The notes beneath the pieces were generated by a model. That model saw only the letters and a list, made by a program, of their open reading frames with translations. It searched no databases and was not told where the DNA came from. From Chlamydiota bacterium (GTDB lineage Bacteria > Auribacterota > JACPWU01), in the NCBI GenBank assembly GCA_016196885.1, contig JACPWU010000032.1, positions 1 to 32,000 of the forward strand: a stretch of 32,000 bases of DNA, in the 5' to 3' direction. Below, one piece after another: positions 14,054 to 32,000 of this stretch. Every line of letters starts with the position of its first letter. Position 1 is the first letter of the stretch. Both the position numbers and the translations under genes were made by a program.

Positions 14054-14449
14054 CTATTTGTGATCCCTCGTCTCACATGTCTTATCGTAAACTTGTTTTG
14101 CAATCTTGAGTGCTTCCTTTGCATGTTTTTCCCCGGGAAGCCCCGTTGGAAGCGTACCGACCACAGCATCAGGATACCGAGTGGGCCTGTAATACTGATC
14201 CAAATCAACCGCTTCGTATGAATGCGCCAAACGTGCAACTTCCACCAAACGATCGACAAACTTTTTTTTCGTTTTCTTAACAATCGCCAAATCTAAATCG
14301 CTCCATTCCCCCACTTGCCCAGAGACCAACGAACCGAGAAGAATCACCTTCTCCGGACGATATTTTTCAATGATAATCGGGAGAATTCTCTTCAGCTCTC
14401 GACGCAGCGCCTTTTTTCTCTTGTTGGCACAAACTTTGGCAAAACCCAT
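14054..14449 (-). CDS. Chimeric minimal nucleotidyltransferase (MNT) N-half fused to a HEPN C-terminal tail. Likely a degraded MNT-HEPN module.
   Basis: NTase motif VILLGSLVSGQVGEWSDLDLAIV is followed directly by the HEPN-type C-terminus YYRPTRYPDA...GEKHAKEALKIAKQVYD. At 131 aa it is too short to hold both complete domains. Confidence 0.6.
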   Translation of the reverse strand: MGFAKVCANKRKKALRRELKRILPIIIEKYRPEKVILLGSLVSGQVGEWSDLDLAIVKKTKKKFVDRLVEVARLAHSYEAVDLDQYYRPTRYPDAVVGTLPTGLPGEKHAKEALKIAKQVYDKTCETRDHK

Positions 14450-14463
14450 CTTTGAAGCCCCCC

Positions 14464-15729
14464 TTATTTACGAACCTGCTTCGAAAAACCCATCACCAGC
14501 AAAACACCCACCAAAAACCATTCAATCACATTTAAGATAATCAAAATGTCTCGAAATGATTTGTGAAAAATGGAGACGAAAACCCACTCTAAAAGACAGG
14601 CCCCAAGAATCATATAGATAAACCCATATTTCCTCAAGCCCAGATTAAATTGGACGAGAACATTGGAAAGAGCTAGCGGAAGCATCGAGAAGGCATAAAT
14701 GGGAAGAAGGCGTGAAGCCTGAGGGTACTGTTCACCAAAAAGAAAGCGAATGAGAAAGTCCGGGAAGGCAACGAAAAGAAGAAGCCCCCCCAAGGAAAGA
14801 ACCCCCGTCCAAAGAAGACATCTTTTGAGAAGGGCATGCGCATCTTTTTCAAGGGCATGTGCCTCATTCACCATGGGATACATGGCCATGGCAAGCGATC
14901 CCGGAAAATAGAAAATAGATCGTCCCAGAATGACCGCCGCTGCATATTGACCTGCCAGCTCCGGCAGGAAGAAATGTTTCACCAAAATCAAGTCCAGATT
15001 GACCAAGCCAGCACATCCCAAAAGAGTCAAGGTGACGGGGATTGAAAAAAGAAGAATTTCTCGGGTATGCCTCTCCACGGGACCTGAAGAAGCATGGGTT
15101 TTTAAAATTCTTTGGAGAGGTCCACAAAAAAATAAAATAGGTGGAAAGGCCGCTAGAAAATTGGCCAGAAGCCCGCCATTCACACCCAAACCCAACCCTA
15201 CCAGAAGAATTCCAAAAAGAAGACGCGAAATTCCACCTGCGACAAGCGTCCATCCCAAACGGACAAAGAGCTGCAAACCTTGAAGCAACGCTGTCCCCAC
15301 AGGAAGCACAAAACTCATAAAAACCATGACGGCGAGAATCAACAAAGGCAGAGCACTTTCCAAGACCAGAAAACGACCCATCCAAAGACGTGTGATAAAG
15401 ACAAGAATACCTAAGAACATTCCGAGAAGGGTGAGATTGCGCAATGAATTTAAAAGAAAGAGTCGAAGTTTCCCCCCTTCTTGGCGGGCCTGAAACTGAG
15501 AAATATATTTCACCATCACCATCCCAATCACCGCCACCGCCACCGTTTCCATTGCAAAAAGTGAGAGAAGACTGTTGAGGGCTCCAAAATCATGGGGGGC
15601 CATCAACCGAGACATCGTAAATTGATAAAAATAACTCGCCAGATTTGCGACAGAACTGGCCACAAAAAGGATGACACCGGATTGAAAAAATTTTTCTTTG
15701 AAAAATTTACTGCGAAACACTTGAATCAT
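14464..15729 (-). CDS. Wzx/MOP-family polysaccharide (oligosaccharide) flippase
   Basis: Multi-TM protein with the N-terminal motif FFQSGVILFVASSVANLASYFYQFTMSRLMAPHDFGALNS. The track start 15807 adds 26 non-hydrophobic residues, so ATG 15729 (MIQVFRSKFF) is likelier. Confidence 0.75.
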   Translation of the reverse strand: MIQVFRSKFFKEKFFQSGVILFVASSVANLASYFYQFTMSRLMAPHDFGALNSLLSLFAMETVAVAVIGMVMVKYISQFQARQEGGKLRLFLLNSLRNLTLLGMFLGILVFITRLWMGRFLVLESALPLLILAVMVFMSFVLPVGTALLQGLQLFVRLGWTLVAGGISRLLFGILLVGLGLGVNGGLLANFLAAFPPILFFCGPLQRILKTHASSGPVERHTREILLFSIPVTLTLLGCAGLVNLDLILVKHFFLPELAGQYAAAVILGRSIFYFPGSLAMAMYPMVNEAHALEKDAHALLKRCLLWTGVLSLGGLLLFVAFPDFLIRFLFGEQYPQASRLLPIYAFSMLPLALSNVLVQFNLGLRKYGFIYMILGACLLEWVFVSIFHKSFRDILIILNVIEWFLVGVLLVMGFSKQVRK

Positions 15730-15814
15730 CACTATCCCCTCTTCTGGCTTCCTTCTCGACGACGGGTCCGATGGATATAACACCCTGCGCTCGAAGCCGA
15801 GAACCAAACCATTT

Positions 15815-16999
15815 TTATCGTGCTATTCTTTTTTCAAAAGCAGTCGAAAACCGCTCCAAAACATCTTTCCATTTAAAATGATTGATCACATATTGCCGAC
15901 CGCTTCTTCCCATTTTTTCCCTCAAGCCACTGTCTTTGAGAAAAAATTGAAGGGCCTCTTCAAACTCAAAATAATTCTTAAAGACAAGTCCCCCGTTAGA
16001 ATGTTTCGCATGGTATGAGGTCACATCACATTTTTCATTCACCAAAACAGGGGTCCCAGCGAGCCAGGATTCCATTAAGACAATCGAAAAACTTTCGTTG
16101 AGAGAGGGCTGACACGTCACCAAGGCCTCTCGATAAGCTTGAATCTTTTCTTCTTCACTTACAAAGCCTAAATCTAAAATGTCTTTTGAGAGACGCGCCT
16201 TTTCAGGCAAATCCCCGCTCCCCAAAAGCACCAGTTTTAAATCACCCGAAGAATGCCTCCGATAGGTTAAAAAATAATCGATCAAAAGAGGTGTGTTTTT
16301 ACCGTTTTCACGTCTGCCGACATAGAGAAGGAAAGGACCCTCCCCTAGTTTAAACTTTTCTCGAAAGGAATGGTCTTTAAAAGAAGGAAACGGGTCGAAC
16401 CCCATTCCAACGATGGCACACTTTTTTTCTTGAATTCCAAAAATTTTCTTCGCTAATTCTTCTTCTGGAAATGAATTGAAGAAAAACCCGCTCACACCTT
16501 GAAACATTTTCTTAAAAAGATTCACATAGGCATAGGGTTCCGGATGAAGACAGGGAATCAAAAAAGATTTTTCTAAAACTTTTTGAATGCCCTGATAGAT
16601 CATCCCAAAAAGATAGGGGGCAAAGATAAATGCGTCTCTTTCATTTTTACATTTTTCAAGATAATCATATAAAGATTTAGAATGGACACTGCCCGCCATC
16701 CAGATCACTTCTTCTTTTGAATTTAATGGCCACCCACGTTCCAATCGCTGCTGAAGTTGAATAAACCTACCTAAATTGACTCTCGGATCGACTTCAAAGC
16801 GAAAGACTCGAACGTTTTTAACGGTGCTTTTGCCCGCGGGAAAATCATTTGTCCATCTGACATGATCTTCAGAACAAGTGGTCAGAACCTCAACATCATG
16901 GCCTACACTGGCCAATCGCTCAGCCAAATTTTGAACCAGAATTTCTGCACCCCCTGCACGAGCAATATCATAGCGAGGAACCACAAAGGTTAGCTTCAT
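15815..16999 (-). CDS. GT4-like glycosyltransferase, tandem paralog 1
   Basis: MKLTFVVPRYDIARAGGAE N-terminus and C-terminal NESFSIVLMESWLAGTPVLV. The ATG forms an ATGA overlap with the upstream paralog's stop. Confidence 0.8.
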   Translation of the reverse strand: MKLTFVVPRYDIARAGGAEILVQNLAERLASVGHDVEVLTTCSEDHVRWTNDFPAGKSTVKNVRVFRFEVDPRVNLGRFIQLQQRLERGWPLNSKEEVIWMAGSVHSKSLYDYLEKCKNERDAFIFAPYLFGMIYQGIQKVLEKSFLIPCLHPEPYAYVNLFKKMFQGVSGFFFNSFPEEELAKKIFGIQEKKCAIVGMGFDPFPSFKDHSFREKFKLGEGPFLLYVGRRENGKNTPLLIDYFLTYRRHSSGDLKLVLLGSGDLPEKARLSKDILDLGFVSEEEKIQAYREALVTCQPSLNESFSIVLMESWLAGTPVLVNEKCDVTSYHAKHSNGGLVFKNYFEFEEALQFFLKDSGLREKMGRSGRQYVINHFKWKDVLERFSTAFEKRIAR

Positions 17000-18273
17000 T
17001 TCGTCGTTCGTCTTTCGTCGTTTGTTGTTCGTTGTTCGTTGTTCGTTGTTCGTTGAAGAAGATATCGTTCAAACGCTTTTTCAAAACGTTCTATGACTTT
17101 CTCCCACGCATAATTCTCTCGAACATAACGATCCCCTCTCTCTCCCATTTCTAAACGTAAAGATTCGTTATTCATCAATAAGTTAAGTGCCTCTTCAAAT
17201 TCAAAATAATTTGAGAAATAAAGACCCCCCCCACTTTGAACACAGTGGTATTTCGTCACTGCACATCCGCCGTGCACCAGAACGGGTGTTTTGAGAGACC
17301 AGGCTTCCATGATCACGATCGATAAACTTTCATTTAAAGAAGGCTGACACAGGGCAAGAGCCCCTTTCACCGCAGCCCATTTATCTTCTAAAGGAATAAA
17401 CCCAAGAGGAACAATCACATCGCGAAAAGGCTCCGAGATTTCTATTTCTCCTGAGCCTAAAAGAATTAATTTAAGAGAGGTCCCTGTATTGATAAAATAT
17501 TTCTTAAAATATTCGATTAAGAGCGGAACGTTTTTCCCCTTTTCCCATCGACCCACAAAAATCAGGTAAGGGCCTTGAATGCCATATTTTTTACGAAAGG
17601 CATCTGAAGAAACCTCAGGCAAGGGATCAAACCCCAGAGCAACAAGATGAGAGGAGTCACCCTTGAGTCCATAGAGCGCATGGGCCAGTTCAGACTCGGG
17701 CTGAGTATTGAAAAAGAGAGAGAGCGCTCTTTGAAACAAATCTTTCGTGATGTTCAAGTGAGCATAGGGCTCATCATGAAGACATGGGATTAAAATAAAT
17801 CGATCAGGAACTCTACGGCTGCCCTCATAACTAATTCCAAAAAGATAGGGCATAAAAACAAAGGCATCAAAATCTTTCGAACGATTTTGAATCGCTTGAT
17901 AAAGGCCAGAGCTATGAACGCTATTCTTAAGCCAAGCGGCCTCTTCTTCAGAGGTCAGCGTCAGTCCCAAATGCATTTTTCTTTGAAGATGCAGAAAAAA
18001 CAAAATATCTTCTTTGGGTTCTGTGGGGAAGCGATGAACGAGCACTCCACCCACCACTTCCTCTCCCGCCTGAAACACATTGCCCCAACGGTGATGATCC
18101 TGTGCACACGTGGTGAAGACCTCGACTGTGTGCCCCCGCACCGCCAAGCGACTGGCCACTTGAGCTGCATGAATTTCAGCACCTCCCGCTTGACCTGTTT
18201 CATATCGAGGGACAACAAATGCGATTCGAAATTTCGTCGTGAGTGGTGAGTGGTGAGTGGTGAGTAAAGACAT
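16996..18273 (-). CDS. GT4-like glycosyltransferase, tandem paralog 2. Its N- and C-terminal extensions are encoded by heptanucleotide repeat arrays.
   Basis: FRIAFVVPRYETGQAGGAE and NESLSIVIMEAWSLKTPVLV align with the downstream paralog. The extra N-terminus MSLLTTHHSPLTTK and the extra C-terminus QRTTNNEQRTTNDERRTTK are repeat-encoded. Confidence 0.8.
   Translation of the reverse strand: MSLLTTHHSPLTTKFRIAFVVPRYETGQAGGAEIHAAQVASRLAVRGHTVEVFTTCAQDHHRWGNVFQAGEEVVGGVLVHRFPTEPKEDILFFLHLQRKMHLGLTLTSEEEAAWLKNSVHSSGLYQAIQNRSKDFDAFVFMPYLFGISYEGSRRVPDRFILIPCLHDEPYAHLNITKDLFQRALSLFFNTQPESELAHALYGLKGDSSHLVALGFDPLPEVSSDAFRKKYGIQGPYLIFVGRWEKGKNVPLLIEYFKKYFINTGTSLKLILLGSGEIEISEPFRDVIVPLGFIPLEDKWAAVKGALALCQPSLNESLSIVIMEAWSLKTPVLVHGGCAVTKYHCVQSGGGLYFSNYFEFEEALNLLMNNESLRLEMGERGDRYVRENYAWEKVIERFEKAFERYLLQRTTNNEQRTTNDERRTTK
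17001..17055. repeat. Two adjacent tandem heptanucleotide arrays on the plus strand: (TCGTCKT)x3 then (GTTGTTC)x4
   Basis: Read directly as tcgtcgt|tcgtctt|tcgtcgt|tt|gttgttc|gttgttc|gttgttc|gttgttc|gttg. They lie in the 3' end of the GT4 paralog at 16996..18273, immediately upstream of the next paralog's ATG. Confidence 0.9.
18234..18265. repeat. Tandem heptanucleotide array TCGTCGT + (GTGAGTG)x~4 on the plus strand
   Basis: Read as gtgagtg|gtgagtg|gtgagtg|gtgagt at 18239..18265, directly after the ATG (18273) of the GT4 gene on the coding strand. The 15-mer tcgtgagtggtgagt recurs at 26016..26030. Confidence 0.9.
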
Positions 18274-18275
18274 TT

Positions 18276-19340
18276 TTACCTCATCAAAGGGTCCAATAAT
18301 TTTCTAAATTCTTGCGCCCATTTTCCGCGGTCAAAATCTTTTAACCTATTTCTTTGTTTCTGGATCACGGCTTGACGAAAATTTGCATCTTGATGAAGCA
18401 TCATCATCATTTCAGCAATGGCAGGGTGATCTTTTTTATGAAAAAGAATACCCGATCCCGCCAAGGTACCGGGCACTCCCGCTGCATGATAAGCCATCAC
18501 GGGCACATCAAAATACATGGCTTCTAGTAATGGGATACAAAACCCTTCATGCTCACTCATGCATAAAAACACATCCGCTAACCGGTAGTAAGCCACCAAA
18601 TTACATTGAGCAATGTGATTTGTAAAGAAGACATCTTGGAGATCGAGTTCTATCGTCAGGGCCCTTAAGTACGCTAAATACAAATCCATTCCCGCATAAG
18701 CCCCTACAATAAAAAGGCGCGCCAAAGGCTCGTACAGTTTCTTGAAATAATAAAAACTCAAAATCACATCATCAATTTTTTTGTTCGGAGCCACACGTCC
18801 CACAAAAACTAAATTAAAAGGTGATTTTTGATGTTGTCTCAAAATTTTTTTTCTCGGCGGGGTATTAAGGTCGTCCAAATTCAACATCAGAGGAAAAACC
18901 TGAGGGTTACTAAAGCCTGCTTCTTTTAATTCCTGAGCGTTGTAAGGAGAAACAGCCAACGTTAGATCTGGAACAGACGCAAGCTCGAGAAGCTCTTCCC
19001 TCCCTTTTCGTAAAACCACTGCCTTTTCCTCTGAAATGGAATGAAAATATTTTGCAGGTGTAATGTTGTGATAAATCAAAACTCTTTTTTCGGAAAGACT
19101 CTTAAAAAAATCCGACATCTCGGATCCTACTGAAAAATGAAAAATAGCAATATTGCTGGGGTCTCTCTTGTAAGTCTTGACATCCAAACATCGTCCAGGG
19201 ACCAAGGTGTTCACGTGACGCCCGACGCCATAGATTTCAGAGCGCACACCCCAACTGCGAATCACTTTTTGAAGTTCAAGCGAGAAATTGCTGATGGCAT
19301 CGCCATCCATAAAACCTGAAACAAATTGGGAAATTTCCAT
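18276..19340 (-). CDS. GT4 glycosyltransferase
   Basis: FVGRVAPNKKIDDVI and EGFCIPLLEAMYFDVPVMAYHAAGVPGTLAGSGILF. Its TAA stop lies 2 nt before the next gene's ATG. Confidence 0.8.
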   Translation of the reverse strand: MEISQFVSGFMDGDAISNFSLELQKVIRSWGVRSEIYGVGRHVNTLVPGRCLDVKTYKRDPSNIAIFHFSVGSEMSDFFKSLSEKRVLIYHNITPAKYFHSISEEKAVVLRKGREELLELASVPDLTLAVSPYNAQELKEAGFSNPQVFPLMLNLDDLNTPPRKKILRQHQKSPFNLVFVGRVAPNKKIDDVILSFYYFKKLYEPLARLFIVGAYAGMDLYLAYLRALTIELDLQDVFFTNHIAQCNLVAYYRLADVFLCMSEHEGFCIPLLEAMYFDVPVMAYHAAGVPGTLAGSGILFHKKDHPAIAEMMMMLHQDANFRQAVIQKQRNRLKDFDRGKWAQEFRKLLDPLMR

Positions 19341-19350
19341 GGTAAAACCT

Positions 19351-19443
19351 CAGAAGACAGAAGTCAGAAGACAGAATGAACAAGGAAGAGATTGTTTTTT
19401 ATTCTGAATTCTGGATTCTGACTTCTGGATTCTGTCTCCTGTC
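19351..19443. repeat. Heptamer-arm hairpin element, copy 1
   Basis: Left arm cagaaga|cagaagt|cagaaga|cagaat (19351..19377), a 23-nt loop, and a right arm of attctga/attctgg-type units (19401..19443). A 31-nt block at 19383..19413 is identical to 21844..21874. Confidence 0.85.
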
Positions 19444-19893: not shown

Positions 19894-20295
19894 CTATTCA
19901 ACCCAATCTTCAATAACAAGATGTCGAACTCTTCTGAACTCTTTGACATTGTGCGTTACTAAAATACCATCATGGGCCATCACGGTCGCCGCGATCATTA
20001 AATCATTGGGACCCATGGGAAGACCTCTCTCCTCTAAATCAGCGCGAATTTTTGAGTAAAATACGGCGGCCTCAGCCCCAAAGGGAATAATCTCATAGGG
20101 ATTCAGAAATTGATTAATCTCTTTGGCTTTCTCACGAGGATTTTCACTTTTCTCAACACCGACAAGAAGTTCAGCCATAACAACGGACGGAATCTTGACT
20201 CGGTCAGGAGCCATGCCTTGTAAGCACTCACACAGATTTAAGGAAAGTCCCTTTAGAAAAAATATGCAGGAGTCTGCATCCAGGCAATACTTCAT
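19894..20295 (-). CDS. vapC: PIN-domain toxin VapC
   Basis: MKYCLDADSCIFFLKG (N-terminal Asp), VVMAELLVGVEKS, and GPNDLMIAATVMAHDGILVTHNVKEF. An ATGA-type overlap joins it to the upstream small ORF. Confidence 0.85.
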   Translation of the reverse strand: MKYCLDADSCIFFLKGLSLNLCECLQGMAPDRVKIPSVVMAELLVGVEKSENPREKAKEINQFLNPYEIIPFGAEAAVFYSKIRADLEERGLPMGPNDLMIAATVMAHDGILVTHNVKEFRRVRHLVIEDWVE

Positions 20296-20522
20296 AATTT
20301 AGCTCTACGCACATCGAGGCTAAGATCCGGTTGGGGAGGTCGTTCAAATTTCTCATGACGTAAAACTCCAAAAAGATCAAAATATCCTTTCGGCCACTCA
20401 TGACAAAGCGCCTTTTCAAGCTTTAACTTCACCCACCTGGATAAGGATATTTTTTCCAGCTTGGCAGCTCTCTCAATTTTTTTTAACATCACTGGATCAA
20501 GATAAATGTTTAAATGAGACAT
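20292..20522 (-). CDS. VapB-type antitoxin, ribbon-helix-helix-like
   Basis: 76 aa. LNIYLDPVMLKKIERAAKLEKISLSRWVKLKLEKAL resembles an RHH/CopG fold. A strong SD (GGAAGGAGG) is present and the ORF overlaps vapC. Confidence 0.7.
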   Translation of the reverse strand: MSHLNIYLDPVMLKKIERAAKLEKISLSRWVKLKLEKALCHEWPKGYFDLFGVLRHEKFERPPQPDLSLDVRRAKL

Positions 20523-21799: not shown

Positions 21800-21895
21800 G
21801 AAGACAGAATCCAGAATTCAGAAGTCAGAAGACAGAATAAATGAGGAAGAGATTGTTTTTTATTCTGAATTCTGACTTCTGACTTCTGTTTTCTG
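21800..21895. repeat. Heptamer-arm hairpin element, copy 2 (between wzm and wzt)
   Basis: The arms are built of NCAGAAN heptamers. By my alignment 24 of the 28 arm positions nearest the loop are complementary. The loop shares the 31-nt block aggaagagattgttttttattctgaattctg with copy 1. Confidence 0.85.
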
Positions 21896-21899
21896 TTAT

Positions 21900-24723: not shown

Positions 24724-24837
24724 GCAAAAATCAAAATGACAAAGCAAAATTTAAAATTTTTCTCTTGCAAGGGCGCTAGAAAATTTTTGAATTTTGACAT
24801 GTTATTTTGCATTTTGATTTTTGGACTTTGATTTTCG
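24724..24837. repeat. A/T-rich inverted repeat with 7-nt periodic arms. Possible diverged member of the heptamer-hairpin family.
   Basis: Left arm caaaaat|caaaatg|acaaagc|aaaat. Right arm attttgc|attttga|tttttgg|actttga|ttttcg. About 21 complementary positions with a 5-nt bulge, and the 53-nt loop contains a nested palindrome. Confidence 0.55.
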
Positions 24838-27518: not shown

Positions 27519-27792
27519 TTAACCCCTCAAGCCCCTCTTACATAAGAGGGGAGTTTGGCTCCCTTGTATAGGGGGAGCTTTTTGCCCTCAGACTGTCCGA
27601 AAATTCCCTCCCCCTTGTGACCGAGCCGGGTGCCGCAAAGCGGCCGGCGAGGAAGTGGTTGGAGCCCGTCAGGGCGCAAACCATGGGGAGGGTTAGGGAG
27701 GGGGTGGATTTGAGCTCACCCTCCCCTAACCCCTCCCATCAAGGGAGGGGAAAACAAGAGTTTTTCGGCCCAGCCTGAGTTGGAGGGGTTAA
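27519..27792. repeat. GC-rich, multiply nested palindromic intergenic block
   Basis: Closing stem TTAACCCCTC / GAGGGGTTAA. Inner hairpins are CCCCTCTTA..TAAGAGGGG, GCCGG..CCGCaaaGCGG..CCGGC, a ~20-bp GGGGAGGGTTAGGGAGGGGGTG / CACCCTCCCCTAACCCCTCCC stem, and CCCCTCCCatcaaGGGAGGGG. Confidence 0.7.
27558..27583 (+). terminator. Candidate intrinsic terminator after the first cyclase gene
   Basis: GCTCCC ttgtatagg GGGAGC followed by TTTTT. Confidence 0.45.
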
Positions 27793-29184: not shown

Positions 29185-29322
29185 GGCATATGCACTTGAT
29201 TCCCCTTAGATAGCAAGCGCCATGGCAAGAAGTTGTAGCCGCCCCATTCATGGGGCTGTGCCCCTTGCATGGGTTTGCCCGATGAATCGGGCGACTACAA
29301 AGGGGAATCAAGTGCATATGCC
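29185..29322. mobile_element. MITE-like element: 138 bp with 23-bp perfect terminal inverted repeats. It carries copy B of the ~70-nt three-stem repeat.
   Basis: GGCATATGCACTTGATTCCCCTT (29185..29207) is the exact reverse complement of 29300..29322. The direct repeat AAATTGTTATT flanks it at 29174..29184 and 29324..29334. Confidence 0.7.
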
Positions 29323-29780: not shown

Positions 29781-31835
29781 ATGGGATGTGCTATGCCATT
29801 TGAAAAATTACGTGTCGGCCTCTCTTTAAAATTCATTCTCTTAACCACCCTTTTGATTGTACTGACCTCCTTGACATTGGGCCTTTTCTTTTTAAGAAGC
29901 AAAGAAAGGGATTATCTTGAATTCCTCAAGTCTCAGGGGATTTCCCTTTCCCGCACCCTGGCCTTTAACAGCGAGTATGGCGTTCTGACAAGCAATCGAG
30001 AGGTGCTCTCGAAGCTTGCGCAGGGCGTTCTTCAGGAAGCGGATGTTTCTTACTGCATCATTCATGATGGATCGGGACAAATCCTCGTCGAACTTTACCG
30101 AAGCGGCCCTCTCAAATTAAATCCGCCCGACTGGATTCTCGGAAACGCCCTTCAACTCAAACTCCCCGGGGAAGAGGCTCGCTCGCAAGATATCCCGACA
30201 GAAAATGGAACTTTAAAGGGCTTTGACGCCGCCACCCTTGTTAAAACCCGCCGCCTGGCCAAGACCCATGAAAGGGTCGAACTTCTGCCCGGTTATCTCG
30301 GGATTTTGGAACAAATCAAAAGAAGGCTCAAAATCGAGGGCCAAATCATCGAGGAAAAAATCGGGACTGTGCGAGTCGGGGTATCCCTCATCAACATCAA
30401 CCACGCCATTTCTAAAATCAAAAAGGCCATGGGCATGATCACCCTCGTGGTCGCCGTCGTAGGAATGCTCATCACCATTCTCTTGGTTCAATTGATCATC
30501 CAACCCATCCGGAGATTGGTTTACGGCACCCGGCAAATCGCCCGGGGGGACTTGAGTTATGAAGTACATGTCAATTCTAGAGATGAGATCGGAGAACTGG
30601 CAACTTCTTTTAATCAAATGACCATTTTCCTGCGCCGCTCCCATCGCCAAGTGGAAGAATATCAAAAGAATTTGGAACAAATGGTGGAGGAGAGAACTCA
30701 CAAGTTAAAAGAGACAGAGGCCGAGCTGATCCGTTCAGAAAAATTTGCAGCCATTGGAGAATTGATCACCGGGATCACGCATGAACTCAACAATAAACTC
30801 ACCCCCATCCTGGGCTACGCCCAAATTTTTAAAACGATGAAGCTCGATGAAAAAATTGCCAGATACATGGACATCATTGAGGAATCGGCGCTGAATGCCA
30901 AAAGAATCGTTGAATCCCTTCTGAAATTCTCAAGGAACACCCCTCCTCAAAAAGCTTATTGTAATCTCAATGACAAAATGAAAGAGACGCTCTCTCTTAT
31001 CGAACCCCATGTGCACAAAAACAACATTCAACTCAAAGTAGAGTTGGATCCCCAACTGCCCAGGACCATGGCGGATCCTTCCTTGATCGGCCAGGCCTTT
31101 CTCAATATCCTAAACAATGGCTGGCAGGCCATGGAGGAAAAAGGCGGAGAATTAGGGGTCAAGTCTTACAGCAAGGATGGAAAAATATTTTTCTCTGTGC
31201 AAGACAAAGGCATTGGAATTGCGAAAGAACATTTAACTAAAATTTTTGATCCCTTTTTCTCGACCAAAGAAGTGGGAAAAGGCACTGGGCTTGGGCTTTC
31301 TATTTCCTATGGCATTCTTCAAGGTCATGAAGGAAATATTCATGTGGAAAGTGTCCTTCATCAGGGATCCATTTTTACCATCGAATTACCCATCAAGACC
31401 CTTGAACATACCTCCCCTGAATACGTTACTTCCAAACAGGAAGAGACCCCTGTTAAAAAGGGCAAAATTCTGATTATCGAAGATGAGCCTTCTGTGCAAA
31501 ATTTGTTGGTGGACGCACTGGAGAATCATCACGACATTGCAACCGCCATGGATGGAAGAGAAGGCCAAAGAATCATTCAAAGAGAACGATTTGACCTTTA
31601 TGTGATTGATTTAAGAATGCCCTACATGGACGGGAGAGAACTTTACGCCTGGATTGAGAAAGATTTTCCGAGAGAGGCCAAAAAGGTGATTTTTATCACG
31701 GGTGACACCTACGACAAAAAAATACAAAACTTTTTAAGTTCTGTCCAACAACCCCAACTCAACAAACCCTTCCAAATCGTAACTCTTCAAAGCTTGGTCT
31801 CGCAAATGTTGGAGAAGACAGCGGACAGAACCTAG
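29781..31835 (+). CDS. Hybrid sensor histidine kinase (TM - extracytoplasmic sensor - TM - HAMP - HisKA - HATPase_c - receiver)
   Basis: HAMP PIRRLVYGTRQIARGDLSYEV...EIGELATSFNQM, H-box ITHELNNKLTPILGY, N box/G boxes NILNNGWQA, DKGIGI and GKGTGLGLS. The receiver has ILIIEDEP, DLYVIDLRMPYMDG and KPF. ATG 29793 is an alternative start. Confidence 0.9.
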   Translation: MGCAMPFEKLRVGLSLKFILLTTLLIVLTSLTLGLFFLRSKERDYLEFLKSQGISLSRTLAFNSEYGVLTSNREVLSKLAQGVLQEADVSYCIIHDGSGQILVELYRSGPLKLNPPDWILGNALQLKLPGEEARSQDIPTENGTLKGFDAATLVKTRRLAKTHERVELLPGYLGILEQIKRRLKIEGQIIEEKIGTVRVGVSLININHAISKIKKAMGMITLVVAVVGMLITILLVQLIIQPIRRLVYGTRQIARGDLSYEVHVNSRDEIGELATSFNQMTIFLRRSHRQVEEYQKNLEQMVEERTHKLKETEAELIRSEKFAAIGELITGITHELNNKLTPILGYAQIFKTMKLDEKIARYMDIIEESALNAKRIVESLLKFSRNTPPQKAYCNLNDKMKETLSLIEPHVHKNNIQLKVELDPQLPRTMADPSLIGQAFLNILNNGWQAMEEKGGELGVKSYSKDGKIFFSVQDKGIGIAKEHLTKIFDPFFSTKEVGKGTGLGLSISYGILQGHEGNIHVESVLHQGSIFTIELPIKTLEHTSPEYVTSKQEETPVKKGKILIIEDEPSVQNLLVDALENHHDIATAMDGREGQRIIQRERFDLYVIDLRMPYMDGRELYAWIEKDFPREAKKVIFITGDTYDKKIQNFLSSVQQPQLNKPFQIVTLQSLVSQMLEKTADRT

Positions 31836-31917
31836 CGTACAGCGGTCAGCGGTCAGCGGATAGAAAAAAACTTCATTCTACTGAACGCTAAACGCTGTCC
31901 GCTGTACGCTATTTTTT
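31817..31917 (+). terminator. Terminator-like hairpin built from heptanucleotide repeats (NNCAGCG units), followed by T6
   Basis: gacagcg|gacagaa|cctagcg|tacagcg|gtcagcg|gtcagcg, a loop, then ctgaacg|ctaaacg|ctgtccg|ctgtacg. AGCGTACAGCGG (31834..31845) pairs perfectly with CCGCTGTACGCT (31899..31910), followed by ATTTTTTAT. Confidence 0.7.
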
Positions 31918-31919
31918 AT

Positions 31920-32000
31920 CTACCTTTGGAGTTTCTTTTTCTTTCTTAGCGGAAGACTTATAACTGTCACTGCGATAATCTGTCGTGTAAAAACCAGATC
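31920..32000 (-). CDS. Possible 3' end of a convergent minus-strand gene (only 26 codons visible)
   Basis: The frame is open from 32000 to TAG at 31922..31920 (…DLVFTRQIIAVTVISLPLRKKKKLQR*). This is too short to assess. Confidence 0.2.
   Translation of the reverse strand, partial: DLVFTRQIIAVTVISLPLRKKKKLQR

Follow-up and report, generated by a model that had tools for sequence, protein, structure and literature searches.

Heptanucleotide arrays encode both termini of a family-4 glycosyltransferase in a chlamydial polysaccharide locus

When a tandem repeat with a 7-nt unit lies within a glycosyltransferase gene, the question arises whether the repeat acts as a mutational switch for the enzyme or is a by-product of processes that affect gene junctions in general. 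The gene GT4a, located in a 32-kb stretch of a chlamydial genome (termed the window, meaning the whole stretch of DNA that was analysed), poses this question at both of its ends.

GT4a, its locus and its two arrays

The genes and junction elements under consideration are the following:

18276..19340, minus strand: upstream group-1 glycosyltransferase, 354 aa, the stop of which abuts the GT4a start
18278..18282, minus strand: Shine-Dalgarno sequence GAGGT, 4 nt 5' of ATG 18273, overlapping the TAA stop (18276-18278) of the upstream glycosyltransferase
16996..18273, minus strand: GT4a, family-4 (GT-B) glycosyltransferase, 425 aa (ORF and translation), with both termini encoded by heptanucleotide arrays
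18239..18265, minus strand: 5' heptanucleotide array (CTCACCA)x3.9, a perfect 27-nt run spanning GT4a codons 3-12 (TRF score 54, 100% matches)
18231..18240, minus strand: first copy of the 10-mer ACGACGAAAT, at the 3' edge of the 5' array, preceding the conserved N-terminus of GT4a
17000..17055, minus strand: 3' heptanucleotide array of 8 units (TRF 8.0 copies, 89% matches, score 77)
16998..17007, minus strand: second copy of ACGACGAAAT, preceding the conserved N-terminus of GT4b
16996..16999, minus strand: ATGA stop/start overlap coupling GT4a and GT4b (sequence and ORF calls)
15815..16999, minus strand: GT4b, a GT4 paralog of GT4a, 394-aa ORF, 47% identity to GT4a

GT4a is a member of the GT4 family (GT-B, retaining), in which a Glycos_transf_1 domain at the C-terminus is combined with an N-terminal domain of GT4 type. 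It matched the Pfam profiles Glycos_transf_1 (PF00534, 1.7e-15) and PF13692 (3.8e-10), N-terminal-domain models scored under the cut-off, and a sequence search against the PDB returned MshA, BshA and PimA. An AlphaFold2 model (mean pLDDT 87.6, pTM 0.86) has the GT-B layout with two Rossmann-like halves, pLDDT dropping below 50 for residues 1-9 and to about 61-66 in the tail. A GT4 protein from a Chlamydiae MAG (P0001) is 100% identical to GT4a; it is represented by two records, with the same sequence from two MAGs (NCBI accessions MBI1884582.1 and MBI3266524.1). The tandem paralogs proposed in the initial annotation are both present as ORFs, and the GT4a-GT4b tandem is kept in seven out of seven related loci. 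With genes for Wzm, Wzt, a deacetylase and many GT2 and GT4 enzymes, this is a Wzm/Wzt polysaccharide locus, a classic kind of target for phase variation, and its glycan is probably exposed on the cell surface.

For the 5' end of GT4a, a translated heptamer array, a start at ATG 18273 with translation through the repeat, and a frameshift upon gain or loss of a single unit had been postulated, and all three are borne out. The perfect run encodes the peptide LTTHHSPLT and is followed by a fourth, variant unit, CTCACGA, that extends the repeat to position 18237. ATG 18273 has a Shine-Dalgarno sequence, and the first in-frame ATG, GTG or TTG after it is codon 39, which already lies within the GT4a fold. 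The array is obligatorily coding because ATG 18273 is the sole usable start. Non-canonical internal starts at codons 12 and 13 (both ACG) or codon 17 (ATC) were judged unlikely because none of these candidates has a Shine-Dalgarno sequence. Seven is not a multiple of 3, and the array is located inside the ORF; gain or loss of a unit is predicted to abolish the full product, with no canonical start in front of the fold to bypass it. In silico, changes by 1 or 2 units led to products of 19-108 aa and a change by 3 units restored the frame. The RNA of the array is predicted to be single-stranded (region z = +1.29), and no inverted partner of the array was found in the window.

The proposal of a leader shared by the two paralogs stands insofar as ACGACGAAAT occurs in exactly two exact copies in the window, one in each paralog leader. 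The history attached to it, in which the ancestral GT4a start was lost by a change from ATG to ATT, does not: the distance from ACGACGAAAT to the conserved TTTGT is 11 nt in GT4a and 10 nt in GT4b, so that the leaders are 1 nt out of register, 'ATT' is not read as a codon of GT4a and a straightforward change from ATG to ATT is not supported as the history. The alignment with orthologs can be read in two ways. On one reading, the ancestral start would align with codon 13 (ACG); on the other, ATG TCT TTA would correspond to an ancestral ATG TCT TAT, and 36 nt would have been inserted in frame behind codon 3.

At the 3' end, an array of four GAACAAC units had been described. It is real and translated, but comprises 8 units, of which only the run at 17024-17055 is perfect (32 nt, AACAACG x4.6), followed by AACAACA, AACGACG, AAAGACG and AACGACG. 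The array encodes the last 19 residues of GT4a, QRTTNNEQRTTNDERRTTK, and doubles as the leader of GT4b, for which a scan for a Shine-Dalgarno sequence found none; it abuts the GT4b start, coupled by the ATGA overlap that had been correctly recognized. The predicted displacement of the stop was likewise reproduced in silico: a change by +1 or -2 units leads to an in-frame GT4a-GT4b fusion of 821 or 814 aa, respectively, and a change by -1 or +2 units places the GT4a stop 11 codons into GT4b. The RNA is predicted to be unstructured (z = +0.55), and no inverted partner of this array was found in the window either. Peptides of interest for array translation at this locus are MSLLTTHHSPLTTK and ...YLLQRTTNNEQR.

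Period-7 arrays and hairpins in the window and in related loci

The two arrays bracketing GT4a are indeed present above chance, but they are not special to this gene: in the window, which covers 32 kb of the genome at this locus, TRF detected 11 period-7 arrays where shuffles gave 1.05; in the related locus L001 (GCA_016178055.1, JACOUC010000042.1), 5 were detected and 0.65 expected. For periods other than 7, TRF counts in both loci were near the expectation from shuffles. Perfect arrays of at least 3 units had a period of 7 throughout, except for one short period-4 run, and perfect period-7 runs of at least 21 nt did not occur in any of 200 dinucleotide shuffles (longest 19 nt), compared with the 27 and 32 nt observed. 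Almost all of the 11 arrays lie at gene junctions, and the larger ones, found at six sites, are every one located at a gene border or in intergenic DNA.

Four of the arrays in the window are hairpins with heptamer-periodic arms of 30-45 nt (RNA fold z between -4.75 and -7.06). Two of them belong to one family, designated type A:

19350..19441, minus strand: hairpin with arms (CAGAAKY)n and (ATTCTGW)n at the ORF159-to-GT junction (fold -36.2 kcal/mol, z = -4.75)
21800..21896, minus strand: hairpin of the same family at the Wzm-to-Wzt junction (fold -43.5 kcal/mol, z = -7.06)

The type-A hairpins have a common 27-nt loop, and the loop sequence CAGAATAAAAAACAATCTCTT gave no match among species-representative genome contigs, a set that does not include the source genome. 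The 5' arm of the first hairpin encodes the tail of ORF159, which terminates in ...RRQNPEVRIQNSE. Type-B hairpins of the window have arm and loop sequence in common with two L001 sites that are not orthologous. A search of Rfam yielded no family at gathering thresholds, the hairpins giving sub-threshold noise only, and scans for promoters and terminators revealed neither an excess nor any association with the arrays. As dispersed imperfect palindromes between co-transcribed genes, these four hairpins, and they alone, resemble intercistronic palindromes of the REP/BIME type, from which they differ by the heptamer periodicity and length of their arms; no RAYT-like gene was seen, and the GT4a arrays form no hairpin.

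In related loci, period-7 arrays are also found at gene junctions. Heptamer elements occupy three consecutive junctions (ORF15x-GT, GT-GT4a and GT4a-GT4b) in both the window and L001, with unrelated units. The ORF15x tail is encoded by an array in the window, L001 and L002, and a hairpin is present there in L004. At the GT4a-GT4b junction, L001, L002 and L007 carry a heptamer-type inverted repeat, a full hairpin with a 5' arm that reaches into or abuts the 3' end of GT4a. The GT4a ortholog of L001 (64-65% identical) contains a perfect (AATCCGC)x4.6 array of 32 nt at the same N-terminal site (1819-1850) and has no start after the array until codon 67. In orthologs that lack arrays, the protein begins 3-4 residues ahead of RIAFV and finishes 4-10 residues past FExAFExY; the peptides that the arrays encode in GT4a are therefore additions.

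The comparison of orthologous loci thus located a heptamer array at the same N-terminal site in L001 and was uninformative on copy number: L002 and L003, both of which encode P0006 and stem from different sources, are identical across 15.5 kb and offer no 7-nt indels for comparison. The GT4a proteins of both species are intact, and each has two accessions that share one sequence; no variants of GT4a or its L001 ortholog were found in their 90% clusters. Scans of JGI metagenomes with variable-gap patterns over the 5' array of the window and over the L001 array gave 0 matches each. Together, these records and scans are much too limited a sample to rule out variation in unit number.

One AT-rich heptamer array type recurs in many phyla. 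In 119 unrelated loci sharing one heptamer 21-mer, 74% of the period-7 arrays are intergenic and a minority lies in ORF ends. A single mobile element was considered as the source of this cross-phylum 21-mer and rejected: its flanks have nothing but period 7 in common and it lacks unique element ends, and convergent AT-rich heptamer arrays are therefore more likely.

Origin of the arrays

The general picture that emerges is that the GT4a arrays are probably, though by no means certainly, heptanucleotide microsatellites that slippage has generated at compact operon junctions and that have been absorbed into tolerant protein termini. Replication slippage would generate the arrays in the compact junctions flanking GT4a, and they would be two of the many period-7 arrays and heptamer-armed hairpins that are spread across the lineage at the gene borders of this chlamydial clade, elements that appear to hold their positions while their unit sequences turn over. 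As the operon junctions measure 0-3 nt, the arrays fall inside reading frames. The 5' array would represent an in-frame N-terminal insertion read by every ribosome initiating at ATG 18273, and the 3' array would substitute for the normal short C-terminus of GT4a and act as the leader of the ATGA-coupled GT4b. Judging from the structural model, both array peptides are disordered or low-confidence appendages outside the GT-B fold, which would make them tolerable. Protein termini tolerate indels, and simple sequence repeats (SSRs) are known to accumulate in them for this reason (PMC3315296). We infer that the arrays arose by slippage and persist by tolerance, not by selection. As heptamer arrays occupy many gene junctions both here and in related genomes, no gene-specific explanation is needed, and the frameshift-proneness that the arrays in principle confer on GT4a would be a by-product unless variability is seen.

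The arrays also match a known class. Heptanucleotide repeats are the over-represented class of long SSRs in many bacteria, ascribed to polymerase slippage, and intergenic heptamer arrays, some of them inverted pairs, occur in Calothrix/Nostoc, Xanthomonas and Beggiatoaceae, with indels in 7-nt steps between strains (PMC4679880, PMC4692102). The arrays of Calothrix PCC 7601 and Nostoc, of Xanthomonas (GGGAATC) and of Beggiatoaceae (TAACTGA) resemble those of the window in their period, their large number, their location at gene borders, often just 5' of starts, their occasional inverted pairing and their turnover at conserved positions. They differ in being almost always non-coding and in having one or a few dominant units per genome, whereas the units in the window are diverse and two arrays are translated. 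Chlamydiota are not among the taxa named for intergenic heptanucleotide SSRs in the passages of these reports that were consulted.

Several observations speak against a mere by-product. All three of the purest arrays are located at GT4a termini, two of them in the window (27 and 32 nt) and one in L001 (32 nt), while the intergenic hairpin arms are only 65-95% matched. Array-encoded N-termini are present in just 2 of 120 homologs, GT4a and its L001 ortholog. Two lineages have independently acquired a perfect array of non-triplet units between the only start and the fold of this enzyme, which resembles selection for mutability more than it does drift. Moreover, simple slippage leaves the sharing of ACGACGAAAT by both leaders unexplained.

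One alternative is a selected contingency locus, which we regard as possible, albeit rather unlikely. The 5' array would then serve as a slipped-strand ON/OFF switch for one step in the synthesis of a Wzm/Wzt-exported surface glycan, and the 3' array would additionally determine the form in which GT4a and GT4b are made: separate but coupled, fused in frame, or with the stop of one overlapping the other. A perfect array of a non-triplet unit between the only start and the fold, truncated products upon 1- or 2-unit changes, fusions of 821 or 814 aa upon 3' changes by +1 or -2 units, the presence in L001 of another perfect heptamer at this site with no later start before codon 67, and a gene class and locus type typical of phase-variable genes are all compatible with such a switch, and there are heptanucleotide precedents. 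In Escherichia coli K1, neuO of the CUS-3 prophage encodes a polysialic-acid O-acetyltransferase and carries (AAGACTC)n in its 5' coding region, with 3-53 copies, 20 being the commonest (PMC13001214). Like GT4a, neuO combines a 5'-coding heptanucleotide repeat in a polysaccharide enzyme with a translated N-terminal appendage and full-length product in one of three frames (PMC13001214). Its switching has been measured and mixed populations are known, whereas GT4a has 3.9 units and yielded no variant alleles; furthermore, NeuO is an acetyltransferase and GT4a a chromosomally encoded GT4 enzyme of an environmental chlamydia. The pilin-glycan glycosyltransferase gene pglE of Neisseria, phase-variable via a heptanucleotide repeat (PMC7157529), is comparable by description; in that case, however, isolates from carriage of a host-adapted pathogen provided the demonstration of switching. 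Haemophilus influenzae has heptanucleotide SSRs in the hmw1A/hmw2A promoter (TGAAAGA) and near or within a TonB-dependent receptor gene (AACAACC); the latter unit is nearly that of the GT4a 3' array (AACAACG) and is likewise situated just 5' of or inside an ORF, but these tracts comprise 13-38 strain-variable units (PMC2651432). What weighs against a switch in GT4a is the low copy number of 3.9 and 4.6 perfect units, the intact proteins in both species, identical under two accessions each and with no variants in the 90% clusters, the 0 matches for copy-number variants in JGI metagenomes, similar arrays at many junctions where a switch is inconceivable and a selective scenario undocumented for an environmental chlamydia. 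The stricter version, a two-position device in an environmental, presumably protist-associated chlamydia, in which the 5' array sets ON or OFF and the 3' array a coupled, fused or uncoupled state with an overlapping stop, appears doubtful. If true, the different heptamer in the ortholog would mean selection for mutability of this glycan step, and heptanucleotide-based glycan phase variation would exist in Chlamydiota beyond the pathogenic genera.

We consider it similarly improbable that the arrays are translation-initiation elements, C/A-rich and G-poor stretches that keep the GT4a and GT4b starts unstructured, with selection acting on composition and incidental effects on the frame; (AACAACG)8 would then be a leader independent of a Shine-Dalgarno sequence, possibly bound by S1 or a cold-shock protein. 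CAA-rich and CA-repeat leaders are enhancers of translation. Both GT4a arrays are predicted to be fully single-stranded, unlike the hairpins, and GT4b lacks a Shine-Dalgarno sequence, with the array ending at its ATG. Beggiatoaceae TAACTGA arrays lie within a few nucleotides of starts without Shine-Dalgarno sequences and have been proposed as S1, Csp or CsrA sites (PMC4679880), and an (AACAACC)n tract of H. influenzae is located 13 bp upstream of a gene (PMC2651432). However, GT4a already has a good Shine-Dalgarno sequence, orthologs do without arrays, the units are wholly different between genomes (CTCACCA versus AATCCGC), and an unstructured leader needs no perfect tandem repeat.

Least likely of all, and very improbable, are remnants of mobile or copied hairpins, in which the GT4a arrays would be A/C-rich 5' arms that lost loop and 3' arm and were later re-homogenised, ACGACGAAAT marking the common source: dispersed families, the loop common to the type-A copies, the type-B arm and loop sequence found at non-orthologous sites, the full hairpins at the GT4a-GT4b junction of L001, L002 and L007, and ACGACGAAAT in both paralog leaders are in its favour, but a partner arm is without trace in the window, CTCACCA and AACAACG match no hairpin family in the loci examined, neither a transposase nor a target-site duplication was identified, and the widespread 21-mer has period-7 flanks without unique ends.

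Implications for chlamydial glycan genes

GT4a has the layout of a known on/off mutation switch, and selected phase variation of the NeuO/PglE type is a possibility of limited probability. If the 5' array varies, an uncultured environmental chlamydia would diversify a surface glycan stochastically. It would share this 7-base mechanism with neuO of E. coli K1 and pglE of Neisseria, where it is directed against phage and immunity, and comparable host or phage pressure in groundwater would be suggested. If the array is invariant, the locus would be an example of junction heptanucleotide microsatellites that have been written into protein termini and have moved start and stop positions. Such array-shifted starts and stops bear on gene calling in MAGs. 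The broader pattern, period-7 arrays and heptamer-armed hairpins at fixed junctions with turnover of their sequences, may merit more attention than GT4a alone.

Heptamer arrays at both ends of GT4a

The glycosyltransferase gene GT4a and its tandem paralog GT4b follow a third glycosyltransferase gene head to tail in a large glycan locus, which further encodes Wzm/Wzt ABC-transporter components, a polysaccharide deacetylase, several GT2, GT4, methyltransferase and radical-SAM enzymes, and three scattered toxin-antitoxin-like modules:

18276..19340, minus strand: group-1 glycosyltransferase
16996..18273, minus strand: GT4a, 425 aa
18239-18265, minus strand: 5' array of GT4a, 3.9 perfect copies (TRF)
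17000-17055, minus strand: 3' array of GT4a, 8 units, perfect portion 17024-17055
15815..16999, minus strand: GT4b, 394 aa
13436..13989: toxin-antitoxin-like, DUF433 plus DUF5615
14054..14449: toxin-antitoxin-like, nucleotidyltransferase/HEPN protein
19894..20295: toxin-antitoxin-like, PIN-domain protein, with small upstream ORF 20292..20522

The PIN module is absent from the corresponding position in the syntenic loci L002 and L004. The GT4a protein shares 100% identity with an entry annotated 'MAG: glycosyltransferase family 4 protein [Chlamydiae bacterium]', matches the GT4 enzymes MshA, BshA and PimA in the PDB and gave a confident AlphaFold2 model (mean pLDDT 87.6, pTM 0.86).

In sense direction, GT4a begins with ATG TCT TTA, three CTCACCA units and one CTCACGA, followed by CGAAATTTCGAATCGCATTTGTT. 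A Shine-Dalgarno sequence, GAGGT, lies 4 nt upstream of ATG 18273, the next in-frame ATG, GTG or TTG is codon 39, where initiation would cost the enzyme its first beta-strand (residues 16-20) along with the conserved GGAE region, and none of the near-cognate codons before it (ACG 12, ACG 13, ATC 17) has a Shine-Dalgarno sequence. Taken together, these features argue that the 5' array is almost certainly read by ribosomes starting at ATG 18273, as the initial annotation had proposed, and against a non-canonical internal start that would leave it non-coding. The 3' end reads CAACG, three times AACAACG, then AACAACA, AACGACG, AAAGACG, AACGACG and AAATGA; it codes for QRTTNNEQRTTNDERRTTK and finishes in an ATGA overlap with GT4b. 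Coding and overlap were thus correctly annotated, while the four units described extend to eight, perfect only in 17024-17055. Residues 1-9 have pLDDT values below 50 and the C-terminal tail values of about 61-66, and six of the seven closest orthologs begin 3-4 residues before RIAFV and stop shortly after FExAFExY. The array-encoded peptides are therefore additions beyond the fold.

When 200 dinucleotide-preserving shuffles of the window were scored for perfect period-7 runs, none reached 21 nt (longest 19 nt), so that the arrays at both ends are real and not due to chance. The frame consequences claimed for them were reproduced in silico: gain or loss of one or two units in the 5' array leads to products of 19-108 aa, and three units restore the frame. 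In the 3' array, +1 or -2 units yield an in-frame GT4a-GT4b fusion (821 or 814 aa) and -1 or +2 units place the GT4a stop 11 codons inside GT4b; GT4a itself is never inactivated. A G8 homopolymer (17225-17232, minus strand) in the codons of the conserved SGGGLYF motif is a potential second slippage site in GT4a; G7+ tracts are not in excess in the window (5 observed, 6.2 expected from shuffles).

The start of GT4a and its orthologs

The 10-mer ACGACGAAAT occurs exactly twice in the 32-kb window (18231-18240 and 16998-17007), once before the conserved N-terminus of each paralog. Its distance to the conserved TTTGT is 11 nt in GT4a versus 10 nt in GT4b, and this 1-nt register offset places the 'ATT' outside the GT4a frame, which rules out a simple ATG-to-ATT loss of the ancestral start within a shared leader, as had been suggested. 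Given 47% amino acid identity between the paralogs and the presence of the tandem pair in all seven related loci, retention of the 10-mer by descent from a paralog ancestor is implausible; perhaps it represents a common seed for units of the AACGACG type. The ortholog alignment allows two readings: the ancestral start may align with codon 13 (ACG), or the present ATG TCT TTA may equal an ancestral ATG TCT TAT, with 36 nt, mostly array, inserted in frame after codon 3. ATG TCT TAT is present in L002 and GTG TCT TAT in L007. In L001, QSFKIAF aligns to MSYKIAF with CAA, the final codon of the array region, in place of the old ATG; here the start was really replaced.

Six syntenic chlamydial loci with GT4a proteins 58-71% identical to that of the window were compared. 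L001 (GCA_016178055.1) carries a perfect (AATCCGC)x4.6 array at the corresponding N-terminal position of its GT4a, which has no canonical start before codon 67, and CAAAAAT/ATTTTGA hairpins at both neighbouring junctions; three consecutive junctions thus bear heptamer elements in both genomes, with unrelated units. No arrays were found at either GT4a junction of L005 (closest ortholog, 70-71%) or L006. In L004, an array was found solely at the junction of ORF15x, the ORF preceding the upstream glycosyltransferase gene. An array-encoded ORF15x tail occurs in the window, L001 and L002, with a hairpin there in L004, and heptamer-type inverted repeats occupy the GT4a-to-GT4b junction in L001, L002 and L007. 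Seven-residue-periodic N-termini were seen in 2 of 120 homologs (P0001, the identical MAG protein, and P0007). In these loci, the heptamer elements are conserved in position and turn over in sequence, which is microsatellite behaviour.

Period-7 arrays and hairpins in the window and in distant genomes

The window contains 11 period-7 TRF arrays versus 1.05 expected, other periods being close to expectation, and all larger ones lie at gene borders. Four border sites are hairpins with inverted heptamer arrays as arms (fold z from -4.75 to -7.06):

19350-19441: type A, ORF159-to-glycosyltransferase junction, -36 kcal/mol
21800-21896: type A, Wzm-to-Wzt junction, -44 kcal/mol
24725-24823: CAAAAAT-type
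31818-31920: (CAGCGGT)n versus (CGCTGWM)n arms, -45 kcal/mol, z = -5.95

The first encodes the C-terminal end of the ORF before it, RRQNPEVRIQNSE up to the stop, an effect like that of the array-derived GT4a tail. Both type-A hairpins are copies of one ~95-nt palindromic element between co-oriented glycan-operon genes, with a common loop, AATAAAAAACAATCTCTTCCT, and arms of CAGAAKY/ATTCTGW heptamers. They have no Rfam family, the loop had no match in contigs of species-representative genomes (source genome not among them), and they may be intercistronic RNA processing or attenuation elements. The hairpin at 31818-31920, directly after the stop of a hybrid histidine kinase gene (29781..31835) and trailed by TTTTTTAT, resembles a terminator. 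A perfect 23-nt inverted repeat (GGCATATGCACTTGATTCCCCTT versus AAGGGGAATCAAGTGCATATGCC, 92 nt apart, 29185-29322) occupies the spacer after a GGDEF gene, and nested G/C-rich palindromes with GGGAGGG/CCCTCCC motifs between both GGDEF genes (27683-27791) may represent a terminator or a region prone to G-quadruplex formation. Adjoining period-6 arrays, (TCACCA)x3.8 and (CACCGC)x2.8 (15510-15545, plus strand), are read in frame within the ORF of a membrane protein (14464..15807), where they code for VAVAVIGMVMV; the TCACCA hexamer is similar to the CTCACCA heptamer on the opposite strand.

The CAAAAAT-type hairpin (24725-24823; L001 595-716 and 3059-3179) contains the 21-mer CATTTTGCATTTTGATTTTTG in its 3' arm. 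An exact scan of species-representative genomes returned more than 119 stretches. Among the matches listed, hosts are Saccharibacteria, other Patescibacteria, Dehalococcoidia, Pirellulales, Phycisphaerae, Gammaproteobacteria, Nitrospirae, Acidobacteriota, Bacteroidota (including cultured Niastella populi) and a Micrarchaeia archaeon; an inverted partner lies no more than 200 nt away in about 42%, versus 1 of 116 shuffled controls. These listed loci hold 457 period-7 arrays (133 different units, 74% intergenic) versus 50-114 for periods 6 and 8-14, and their flanks show the period-7 pattern alone, without unique element ends. The recurrence may reflect convergence or some common cause, for example a binding protein.

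By-product or switch

Four readings of the GT4a arrays, which are not fully exclusive, were weighed. A by-product, with junction microsatellites taken into protein termini that tolerate them, appears somewhat favoured. SSR build-up at protein termini has been ascribed to tolerance of indels there, although a strong N-terminal bias has been taken as a phase-variation signature (PMC3315296). A selected phase-variation switch of GT4a is anatomically sound. Heptanucleotide repeats drive phase variation of neuO (5' coding region, 3-53 copies; PMC13001214) and pglE (PMC7157529), and those of H. influenzae include an AACAACC unit (PMC2651432), as against AACAACG in the 3' array. Perfect repetition speaks for a switch, as do the positions of the three purest arrays in these loci, all at ends of GT4a, the recurrence of the arrangement in an ortholog, and the fitting gene class. 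However, there are only about four units, the proteins of both species are intact, each under two accessions with identical sequence and without cluster variants, variant alleles were not found in public metagenome contigs, and similar arrays occur at many junctions where switching makes no sense. The switch thus stays unproven, is weakened by the wider heptamer-array context, and we regard it as rather unlikely. An unstructured translation leader is improbable; the arrays are indeed predicted to be unstructured (z = +1.29 and +0.55). Descent from a copied hairpin element is more doubtful still, and no inverted partner was found for either array.

The by-product reading places GT4a among described cases. 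Heptanucleotide SSRs are reported to be the class of long SSRs that is over-represented in many bacterial genomes, with polymerase slippage as the proposed cause, and intergenic heptamer arrays occur in Calothrix/Nostoc, Xanthomonas and Beggiatoaceae (PMC4679880, PMC4692102), some as inverted pairs and many just 5' of start codons lacking a Shine-Dalgarno sequence. The GT4a arrays belong to this already known kind of repeat, here probably absorbed into tolerant protein termini.
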